10,323 bases of DNA from a virus, in the UHGV virus genome UHGV-1840329, one strand, 5' to 3'. The translations under genes and the position numbers were made by a program. Positions 2,880 to 3,681 of this stretch are shown here, piece after piece. The notes beneath the pieces were generated by a model that was given only the letters and a program-made list of their open reading frames with translations, searched no databases and was not told the DNA's origin. Numbering within the stretch: the stretch's first letter is position 1; every line of letters begins with the position of its first letter.

Positions 2880-3681
2880 CCCACACCCCTTCTATCCAGT
2901 CAGTGTTATTCCAGTCAAGCTCATCGCTTTTCCCGGCATTTTTTGATTTTCCCCTGATATGATTTACGTGCCTGGCGAATTTTTGTTCCCACTGAACCTG
3001 CGTGAACACTTTGCCCTCAGCCATCCAGTAATCCCGGAATGCAGCAAGTTCAGCAGGTGTAAATTCCGGTTCCGGCAGGGCCGTTCCCCACAGCGCAGCA
3101 CGCCGCCGAAAATCTGGCGACGGTAGCCAGCCATCTGTCATCGGAAATTTCCCGATGGGTTCACTCAGGCCATCCAGAAATTCAGGTTCTGCCACCTGCA
3201 ACGGCGTACTGTTCGCTTCACTGGTCGGAGCACCCTCGCGCACGTGCGCTATGTGTGGGGTTTTATATATATCTTCCTCTTCCTCTTCCTCTGGTAACTC
3301 CTTTTGTAACGCTGTTGGCGTTACTTTTTGCGTTACTCGTTTTCGATGCTCTGCCACTCTTCTATTCGTAAGTGCACGTTTTTTCGATGATTCTCCATTA
3401 TGTCGCTCAAAGTTTGGAAGAATTAGTTTGCCGTCATGATAAGCAAGCCATCCGACGCTAATGAGGGCGTCAGCAAATCCTGTAATAAAAGCGAGTCTAT
3501 CAAGTACTCCTTTTGTAACGCTGCCAGCGTTACCGTCTATTGTTTGCTGGTCAGCCCATGCCCATATACGAACCAGCTTTCCAAGAACAGCATCTGGATC
3601 AATACCCAGAATTTCTGCTATCTGAAAAATTTCAGGTTTATCAGGAGTGATAACTTCAACCTTAATCCAGCTGCTTGCCAT
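2851..3681 (-). CDS. Putative replication initiator (O-like), probable start at ATG 3681
   Basis: The ORF track extends to a GTG at 3699, but the ATG at 3681 has a GAGGGG Shine-Dalgarno 6 nt upstream. The gene sits immediately upstream of and overlaps the P-like gene, has an acidic poly-Glu linker (EEEEEED), and carries iteron-like DNA repeats inside its coding sequence as lambda O does. The N-terminal domain is not lambda-O-like, so the call rests on position and the internal repeats. Confidence 0.6.
   Translation of the reverse strand: MASSWIKVEVITPDKPEIFQIAEILGIDPDAVLGKLVRIWAWADQQTIDGNAGSVTKGVLDRLAFITGFADALISVGWLAYHDGKLILPNFERHNGESSKKRALTNRRVAEHRKRVTQKVTPTALQKELPEEEEEEDIYKTPHIAHVREGAPTSEANSTPLQVAEPEFLDGLSEPIGKFPMTDGWLPSPDFRRRAALWGTALPEPEFTPAELAAFRDYWMAEGKVFTQVQWEQKFARHVNHIRGKSKNAGKSDELDWNNTDWIEGVWDEINSRTSQ
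3298..3337. repeat. Iteron-like repeat cluster inside O-like gene (putative ori), copy 1
   Basis: ACTCCTTTTGTAACGCTG at 3298-3315 followed by GCGTTAC at 3319-3325 and again at 3331-3337. GTAACGC and GCGTTAC form inverted repeats. An AT-rich stretch (TTTTATATATAT, about 3262-3273) lies adjacent. Confidence 0.45.
3506..3533. repeat. Iteron-like repeat inside O-like gene (putative ori), copy 2
   Basis: The same 18-mer ACTCCTTTTGTAACGCTG at 3506-3523 followed by CAGCGTTAC, forming a 19-bp palindrome GTAACGCTG-C-CAGCGTTAC. It is translated in a different reading frame from copy 1 (SVTKGV here, ALQKEL in copy 1), so the conservation is at the DNA level. Confidence 0.45.

Follow-up and report, generated by a model that had tools for sequence, protein, structure and literature searches.

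The initiator gene and its product

The window analysed here, a stretch of 10,323 nucleotides from the virus genome UHGV-1840329, carries on its minus strand a phage replication initiator gene, in the middle of which short DNA repeats and an adjoining polypurine and A/T tract (3261-3533) make up a candidate replication origin. The encoded protein consists of an N-terminal putative DNA-binding domain (N-domain), a linker that bears repeats, and a DnaT-like C-terminal domain (C-domain), and the next gene encodes a helicase loader of the lambda P family whose product is 42% identical to lambda P (E 4e-49). Near-identical DNA is present in the Escherichia phages vB_EcoP_ZX5, HEMP4 and TL-2011b. 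Coordinates of the features discussed below are collected in Table 1.

Table 1. Features of the window relevant to the candidate origin (window positions unless given in amino acids, aa)
Feature	Position	Strand	Remarks
Replication initiator gene, 276 aa	2851..3681	-	PHROG 2509 'replication initiation protein', E 9e-130
Initiator N-terminal putative DNA-binding domain	aa 1-~115
Initiator DnaT-like C-terminal domain	aa 179-249		Pfam DnaT, E 1.6e-18; only Pfam match of the protein
Lambda-P-family helicase-loader gene	2103..2879	-	overlaps the initiator stop codon; Pfam Phage_lambda_P PF06992, E 5e-56
Divergent helix-turn-helix (HTH) repressor gene	4408-4992
18-mer ACTCCTTTTGTAACGCTG, copy 1	3297-3314	+	inside 28-nt repeat copy 1, 3297-3324
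18-mer ACTCCTTTTGTAACGCTG, copy 2	3506-3523	+	inside 28-nt repeat copy 2, 3506-3533
Perfect half-sites GTAACGC/GCGTTAC	3306, 3318, 3330, 3515, 3527	+, -, -, +, -
Degenerate half-site GTAACtC	3294-3300		6/7 match
GCGTTAC partners after the 18-mer copies	3318-3324 and 3527-3533		one more GCGTTAC at 3330-3336
Site A	3294-3336		four half-sites, 12-bp pitch, two direct then two inverted
Site B	3515-3533		perfect 19-bp palindrome GTAACGCTG-G/C-CAGCGTTAC, two half-sites
Polypurine tract AGAGGAAGAGGAAGAGGAAGA, 21 nt	3272-3292	- (sense strand)	encodes EEEEEE; abuts the last half-site of site A
EEEEEE codons	3274-3291
A/T-only stretch TTTTATATATAT	3261-3272		with the polypurine tract, putative DNA-unwinding element
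Perfect DnaA box TTATCCACA	1592-1600		between DUF1064 gene and Eae-like gene
Integration host factor (IHF) consensus matches	1556-1568 and 1601-1613		flank the DnaA box

In addition to the PHROG family given in Table 1, the initiator matches phrog_9474 (E 8e-28) and, weakly, the 'replisome organizer' family phrog_13246 (E 4.8e-4). PHROG 2509 and 9474 comprise initiators of the epsilon15, TL-2011b, Rac-variant and Xanthomonas CP2 type. The N-domain is without a Pfam match, and this includes a large protein-database search, which yielded mostly truncated fragments. Its identification with the corresponding domain of lambda O was rejected, with no match to PF04492 (Phage_rep_O) at E<=10 and an hhalign probability of 0.2% in a profile-to-sequence comparison, while lambda O itself scores 5.7e-36 on this model. 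DUF1376 (PF07120) was likewise rejected, as no match was obtained at E<=10, compared with 7.5e-27 for YdaU of Escherichia coli K-12. The whole protein is not a DnaT (primosomal protein I) equivalog either: it scores 92.4 bits on the NCBIfam model, whose cut-off is 201, and the model covers only amino acids 171-252. A weak similarity to the C-terminus of lambda O (E 0.001) is confined to the last ~55 amino acids of the initiator, the remainder being unrelated. The tails end in ..DWNNTDWIEGV in the initiator and ..DLTNTDWIYGV in lambda O, and the C-terminal residues ..LDWNNTDWIEGV and ..LDLTNTDWIYGV, respectively, agree with the presence of a lambda-P-like partner. The tail ..SDELDWNNTDWIEGV (window 2854-2900) was also noted to resemble ..KPKLDLTNTDWIYGV of lambda O. 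We surmise that this lambda-O-like tail may be the contact for a P-type loader.

Repeats and half-sites inside the initiator gene

The longest exact direct repeat of the window is an 18-mer, the two copies of which lie 209 bp apart from start to start and extend, in a repeat search of the window, to a pair of 28 nt with 89% identity. The longest repeat in 200 Markov-1 simulations averaged 12.7 nt and reached 16 nt at most, so that the 18-mer exceeds all of them. The recurrent core of the repeats is the 7-bp half-site GTAACGC, or GCGTTAC on the other strand. GCGTTAC occurs seven times in the window, counting both strands, versus 0.91 expected, and none of 200 shuffles reached seven; five of the seven copies fall in 3306-3533, that is, within 230 bp. 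The initiator gene thereby holds five perfect half-sites and one 6/7 copy, arranged as two dyads with flanking copies, and the iteron-like unit is the 7-bp half-site at a 12-bp pitch rather than the 18-mer.

A first-pass annotation of the sequence had already called attention to the 18-mer pair, and its presence stands, with two small corrections: the first copy had been placed at 3298-3315 and the spacing given as 208 bp, each one nucleotide off. The statement that each 18-mer is followed by GCGTTAC also holds, but the two further copies claimed at 3319-3337 are those at 3318-3324 and 3330-3336, only one of which is additional to the partners of the 18-mers.

Read in the sense of the gene (3336-3294), site A is GTAACGC aaaaa GTAACGC caaca GCGTTAC aaaagg aGTTAC, and site B (3533-3515) is GTAACGCTG-G-CAGCGTTAC. 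Site B falls in codons 50-56 (GNAGSVT) of the N-domain, and the repeats together with the A/T tract occupy codons 50-56 and 116-140 of the 276 codons. Since 209 is not a multiple of three, the frame changes from one 18-mer copy to the other, giving SVTKGV at site B (..AGSVTKGV..) and ALQKEL at site A (..TALQKEL..); the same two readings had been given in the first-pass annotation and were borne out by translation. A half-site scan of the window revealed no dyad upstream of the initiator ATG.

The polypurine and A/T tract beside site A

In gene sense, site A is followed immediately by AGAGGAAGAGGAAGAGGAAGA (3292-3272) and then by TATATATAAAA (3272-3261). An AT-rich stretch had been annotated before at about 3262-3273; it does exist, and its pure A/T part runs from 3261 to 3272. 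Position 3261 is the start of both the least stable 20-bp and the least stable 40-bp windows in the whole initiator gene, and this least stable DNA, 3261-3300, adjoins site A. A purine run of at least 12 nt is found at the position of the polypurine tract in 155 of 165 distinct homologues; by type, (AGAGA)n pentanucleotide repeats account for 83 and (GAGGAA)n repeats for 55.

The polypurine tract was also considered as a proof of DNA-level selection in its own right, on the ground that it might be read in different frames, and this argument was dropped as weak, because only one of the 83 pentanucleotide tracts, that of the Manatee Spring phage MW202710, lies in a different frame. The 5-nt periodicity and the use of all-purine Arg codons in phages of high-GC hosts are nonetheless suggestive of selection on the tract at the DNA level.

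Constraint on the DNA rather than on the protein

Codon usage was compared across 78 distinct N-domains, taken from phages in GenBank and contigs in IMG/VR. At site B, a single codon dominates each column: GGT for Gly50 (75/77), AAC for Asn51 (78/78), GCT for Ala52 (87%), AGC for Ser54 (66/66), GTT for Val55 (78/78) and ACA for Thr56 (93%). For the other conserved Gly, Val, Thr, Asn, Ser, Ala and Pro columns, the major codon accounts for ~30-80%, mostly 35-60%. The codons of Asp49 and Asp61 next to site B vary, and synonymous-site freezing at site B is limited to ~21 nt.

The window was furthermore aligned with Enterobacter phage BUCT554, a Klebsiella prophage, a Rac variant and phage 673R7, the N-domains of which are 66-93% identical. 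In this alignment the wobble positions drift, but no change is seen in either GTAACGC..GCGTTAC dyad, in the purine tract or in the TATA stretch. The 7-mer itself is read in several ways among the copies and the relatives: GGT AAC GCn yields G-N-A, nGC GTT ACn yields x-V-T, GCG TTA CCn yields A-L-P, GTA ACG Cnn yields V-T-Q/P and GCG TTA CAA yields A-L-Q. Site B is kept at the nucleotide level in Enterobacter, Klebsiella, Rac-type, Xanthomonas and Ralstonia phages; in the Pseudomonas phages VW-6S and PAN70, only its first half-site is intact.

These comparisons show that the half-sites are under constraint at the DNA level and not at the protein level. The first-pass annotation had proposed selection on the DNA from the two frames of the 18-mer, and had suggested aligning related prophages to see whether nucleotide repeats persist while flanking codons drift. 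The alignment with relatives returned precisely this pattern, and the proposal is upheld by the frozen codons of site B in the 78 homologues, by the various readings of the 7-mer, and by half-sites that are invariant while their number and spacers vary.

A second frozen patch was observed between sites B and A, at window positions 3370-3384 (codons 100-104, AAA AAA CGN GCA CTT), where the same 78 homologues use AAA for Lys100 and Lys101 in 97-99% and CTT for Leu104 in 91% of cases. It could be an A-tract, a bend or another DNA-level element.

Half-sites covary with the initiator N-domain

A tblastn search gave matches in 59 phage records, and the alignment of the N-domain family (A2), with distant members at 33-50% identity, contains 19 invariant columns. 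No origin is annotated in any of the 16 phage records of the initiator family that were examined, the curated epsilon15 record included.

Within the clade that carries GTAACGC, half-sites were counted at 83 loci from IMG/VR and GenBank. Their density is 24.7/kb in the zones of sites A and B versus 0.41/kb in the other 257 kb. Each locus has one to six half-sites at site A (mode three) and one to four at site B (mode two); the 7-mers do not change and mostly keep a 12-bp pitch, whereas the spacers between them are free to differ (caaca, gcaca, tggct, agtca, tgcga and others). In Rac-type genes, an insertion of 12 nt (four codons) at site B adds one half-site. Rac-type relatives read sites A and B in the same frame, with both dyads encoding GNAxxVT, and the frame difference seen in the window is thus lineage-specific. 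In many of these relatives, the last 100 bp before the ATG contain a third dyad, GTAACGC-N5-GCGTTAC, for example at 1195-1213 of locus L003 and 1469-1487 of locus L004; the 83 loci have 58 half-sites in this upstream stretch, and the dyad may be an autoregulatory operator.

Other lineages of the N-domain family carry other half-sites at the same place. Among 77 distinct loci of the epsilon15/phiPSA1 clade, most have an array of two GTCCGC and two GCGGAC units at site A, abutting CAGAGAAGAGAAGAGAAGAGAAGA, a few with degenerate copies; a site B is lacking or weak in this clade. Ralstonia phage Raharianne and its relatives have GTAGAC/GTCTAC at site A and Vibrio phages have GTCAC/GTGAC, each with the same half-site at site B, while further lineages present GTGGCG, TTGCGC, TGTCCG, GGTAAC or 12-nt GTGACGTAACGC units at site A and a variable site B. 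Wherever a lineage has a site B, its half-site is identical to that of its own site A, and at several loci (L177/178/182/183, L184/185/204 and L212) the half-site shared by A and B has zero to one copies elsewhere in the locus. In the Raharianne group (L013, L177-L183), the GTAGAC iteron forces V-D repeats into the protein at both sites (VDGRVDGAASTYVDE, VSVDIDVDGDAST), a clear case of a peptide dictated by an overlapping DNA signal.

The repressors of the GTAACGC carriers differ, being of the XRE type in the window and BUCT554 and DicA in Rac-type phages; the Xanthomonas phage records show no annotated repressor in the neighbourhood of the initiator gene. As GTAACGC is common to phages with different repressors, the sites track the initiator and not the immunity region. 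A shared N-domain goes with a shared GTAACGC even in phages whose repressors and hosts are unrelated, whereas enteric phages of another N-domain clade have another half-site. This covariation fits half-sites that would be recognised by the initiator's own N-domain, and it is hard to reconcile with a host factor, an immunity repressor, a protein repeat or an RNA hairpin.

The distances between sites A and B cluster at 207, 209, 219 and 231 bp, which is suggestive of whole helical turns, though not conclusive. Immediately past the purine/TATA tract, the window and its relatives cease to be similar in nucleotide sequence, and the module of N-domain and iterons is joined to at least five kinds of C-domain. 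Of 39 loci with the DnaT-like C-domain, at least 27 have a lambda-P-like gene next to it, and in a further seven, counted apart, the next gene best matches the BUCT554 neighbour. For the Rac-type C-domain, the next gene is DnaC-like or there is none in 26 of 28 loci.

Comparison with known origins

A lambdoid origin is made up of iterons plus an AT-rich tract and lies midway along O, and two iterons with the AT-rich tract form the minimal unwinding substrate (PMC7466680). In the lambda record, four 18-bp iterons are annotated in O, followed by the sense-strand purine tract ACAAAAGAAAAAAGAAAAGATTATTCG and then by an acidic stretch. Lambda thus has its iterons followed by AAAAGAAAAAAGAAAAGATTAT inside O, with P as the next gene, and the window has the same order of iterons, purine/A-T tract, acidic linker, C-domain and P gene, its polypurine tract paralleling the AAAAGAAAAAAGAAAAGA tract that follows the iterons of lambda. 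As in ori-lambda, the candidate origin lies mid-gene between a putative DNA-binding N-domain and a C-domain that would bind the loader, and as in ori-lambda and the Shiga toxin (Stx) phages, the sites are dyad-symmetric and ~19 bp long and the next gene is a true lambda P homologue. Unlike lambda O, however, the initiator of the window has an N-domain without detectable similarity to lambda O and a DnaT-like C-domain. Its half-sites are of 7 bp, two direct and two inverted, compared with four tandem iterons of 18-19 bp in lambda; a second cluster lies 209 bp upstream in the region coding for the N-domain; and its A/T tract, much the shorter of the two, comes after a (GAGGAA)3 tract that contains G. 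The lambda-type layout put forward in the first-pass annotation is therefore sound in its iterons, A/T tract, acidic linker and P homologue, while the name 'O-like' given there to the protein is justified for function and layout only, as the N-domain is not that of lambda O.

Parallels are also seen with the replication modules of Rac-type prophages (ydaU-ydaV; oriJ). The YdaU N-domains of the Rac variant MN652886 and of phage 673R7 are 66-68% identical to that of the window, and both match the window in the positions of their GTAACGC sites and in the EEEEEE/TATA tract, but their C-domain and loader (the DnaC-like YdaV) differ from those of the window and they possess an extra upstream palindrome. 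YdaU of K-12 MG1655 shares its C-domain with the Rac-variant YdaU and has another N-domain (DUF1376), together with repeats of its own, (A)TGTTCAAAC, at the analogous junction; in the gene (L176, MG1655 1421119-1421976) these stand at positions ~144, ~229 and ~388-450, including an inverted copy. K-12 ydaU thus appears to have an analogous ori-in-gene layout with another specificity.

In phages of Gram-positive bacteria, such as SPP1 (gene 38/oriL) and lactococcal phages, the replisome organiser binds repeats in its own gene beside an AT-rich region. No significant homology between these replisome organisers and the initiator of the window was established, and they differ in repeat architecture and hosts.

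A candidate origin and how it might work

Taking the repeats, their conservation and their covariation together, we consider it likely that an epsilon15/TL-2011b-like E. coli prophage has its vegetative replication origin at 3261-3533, inside the gene of its own initiator, a reading that has strong backing in sequence comparison. Such an origin is lambda-like in mechanism, and its initiator DNA-binding domain and iteron architecture are distinct from those of lambda by ancestry. A literature search covering oriJ, ydaU, DnaT-type phage initiators and Eru-type Stx phages retrieved no description of it.

In the mechanism that we propose, the N-domain would recognise the 7-bp half-site GTAACGC and would probably bind as dimers on GTAACGC-N5-GCGTTAC dyads (GTAACGCTGGCAGCGTTAC). 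The initiator would fill the array of site A and the distal palindrome of site B, perhaps with cooperation or looping between the two, to give a nucleoprotein complex resembling the lambda O-some, and this complex could strain and open the adjacent polypurine/TATATATAAAA tract (3261-3292). The DnaT-like C-domain with its lambda-O-like tail might then recruit the lambda-P-like protein, by which host DnaB would be delivered to the open DNA, and transcription of the early-right operon would pass through the origin. By analogy with lambda, site A alone would meet the minimal unwinding requirement of two iterons and an AT-rich tract.

Alternative explanations

The main alternative is that the half-sites are bound by the initiator but serve as autoregulatory or copy-control operators or as transcriptional roadblocks, the origin being elsewhere. 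The upstream dyad of the Rac-type relatives has the typical position for autoregulation, and the window offers a possible origin elsewhere in the AT-rich intergenic stretch 1556-1613, with its perfect DnaA box and two IHF-consensus matches. Nevertheless, the window is without the upstream site, and the array is always found directly beside the purine-asymmetric tract of lowest stability at the domain junction, as it is in ori-lambda. The stretch 1556-1613 corresponds in position to the IHF site that is annotated upstream of the Eae-like gene of epsilon15, and its conservation follows this gene and not the initiator, for which reason it is regarded as a promoter region. We therefore judge the operator explanation unlikely. 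That a different protein of phage or host (a repressor, Cro, IHF, DnaA or a partition-like protein) occupies the sites seems very unlikely to us. Palindromic 19-mers are indeed typical of many HTH regulators, but within the same hosts the half-site follows the N-domain lineage, with GTAACGC in the window and GTCCGC in the enteric phages of the epsilon15 and phiV10 type; it is constant in Escherichia, Xanthomonas, Pseudomonas and Ralstonia phages whose neighbouring regulators are unrelated; and no DnaA box or IHF consensus was found inside the initiator gene.

A role of the palindromes as mRNA hairpins, whether in translational pausing, as an RNase III site or in transcript stability, draws on the predicted sense-RNA structures of -10 kcal/mol (z -2.6) and -14.3 kcal/mol (z -4.0). 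Many relatives, however, have two to four direct half-sites in a row that are unable to pair together, and a half-site can stand alone, as at site B of VW-6S; moreover, hairpins have no need of identical arms at A, at B and upstream, and the arms are invariant rather than compensatory. We hold this role to be highly improbable, and scarcely any credence is left for the notion that the repeats are an internal protein repeat, a product of chance or a passive recombination linker between modules, devoid of function. The mosaic junction, at which similarity ends behind the purine tract and C-domains are shuffled, would be expected of such a linker, and the GNAxxVT encoded in one frame by both Rac-type dyads would suit a protein repeat, but the window copies lie in different frames, the synonymous freezing is confined to ~21 nt, the repeat is longer than the longest repeat in all 200 simulations, and other lineages have unrelated half-site sequences at the same position.

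Several observations count against an origin at 3261-3533, the predicted mRNA hairpins among them. The large epsilon15 clade has a weak site B or none, which makes site B inessential to the architecture. The frame of the polypurine tract is constant in all but one homologue, and protein-level conservation of REEKRRE/EEEEEE is consequently not fully separable from conservation at the DNA level. The pure A/T tract measures only 12 bp compared with ~40 bp in lambda, and there are just four proximal half-sites, one of them imperfect. Rac has been reported to have an active origin, oriJ (PMC3945230), but the one mappable set of K-12 'oriJ' primers from that report falls 260-420 bp downstream, in ydaV and not in ydaU, and a link between oriJ and the ydaU repeats is unproven. 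In the literature, we found no experiment on the element of any homologue.

A wider class and its significance

Beyond the window, the family comparison raises the tentative possibility of a large undescribed class of phage origins, in which initiators with Pfam-orphan N-domains from phages of Gamma- and Betaproteobacteria would act on arrays of half-sites of 6-7 bp, specific to each lineage and at a pitch of ~12 bp, that are fused to a polypurine tract, the arrangement being bipartite in some lineages. In this class, the (AGAGA)n or (GAGGAA)n tract would dictate the REEKRRE or EEEEEE peptide and act as an unwinding or helicase-loading element, and in the bipartite lineages the distal dyad, in the stretch coding for the N-domain, would lie ~20, 21 or 22 helical turns away (209, 219 and 231 bp), and looping between two initiator complexes would be implied.

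For prophages that are widespread in E. coli, Salmonella, Klebsiella and Enterobacter, and whose initiator genes are now annotated merely as 'primosomal protein I' or 'hypothetical protein', the analysis puts forward a concrete candidate origin together with its probable recognition sequence, GTAACGC. It also provides a simple rule by which origins, and the specificities of their initiators, could be predicted for hundreds of phage genomes, namely to look for short repeats directly 5' of a purine tract at the inter-domain junction. Besides, the iterons are instances of overlapping DNA and protein codes, located in loops or linkers where the peptide follows the DNA (V-D from GTAGAC, G-N-A from GGTAACGC). 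That an origin can lie inside the initiator gene has long been established for lambdoid and many other phages, the principle having been known for lambda since the late 1970s, and the conceptual gain is modest for this reason.

Genomic context

Upstream of the initiator gene and on the same strand are a small open reading frame (ORF) and a Cro-like gene, beyond which the HTH repressor gene is divergently oriented. This is the usual layout of a lambdoid early-right operon, with the element downstream of a cI/cro-like pair. The stretch 1556-1613 is among the least stable 40-bp stretches of the window and is conserved in phiV10 and epsilon15-like phages. An exact 14-mer, ATTGGCTATTTTGC, occurs twice, at 660-673 in an Ead/Ea22-like gene and at 3901-3914 in the intergenic DNA upstream of the small ORF that precedes the initiator; this pair is within the range of chance, as the longest repeats in the simulations were of up to 16 nt. 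On the plus strand, at 5597-7528, a YqaJ-like exonuclease gene adjoins a RecT recombinase gene, forming an ordinary phage recombination module.

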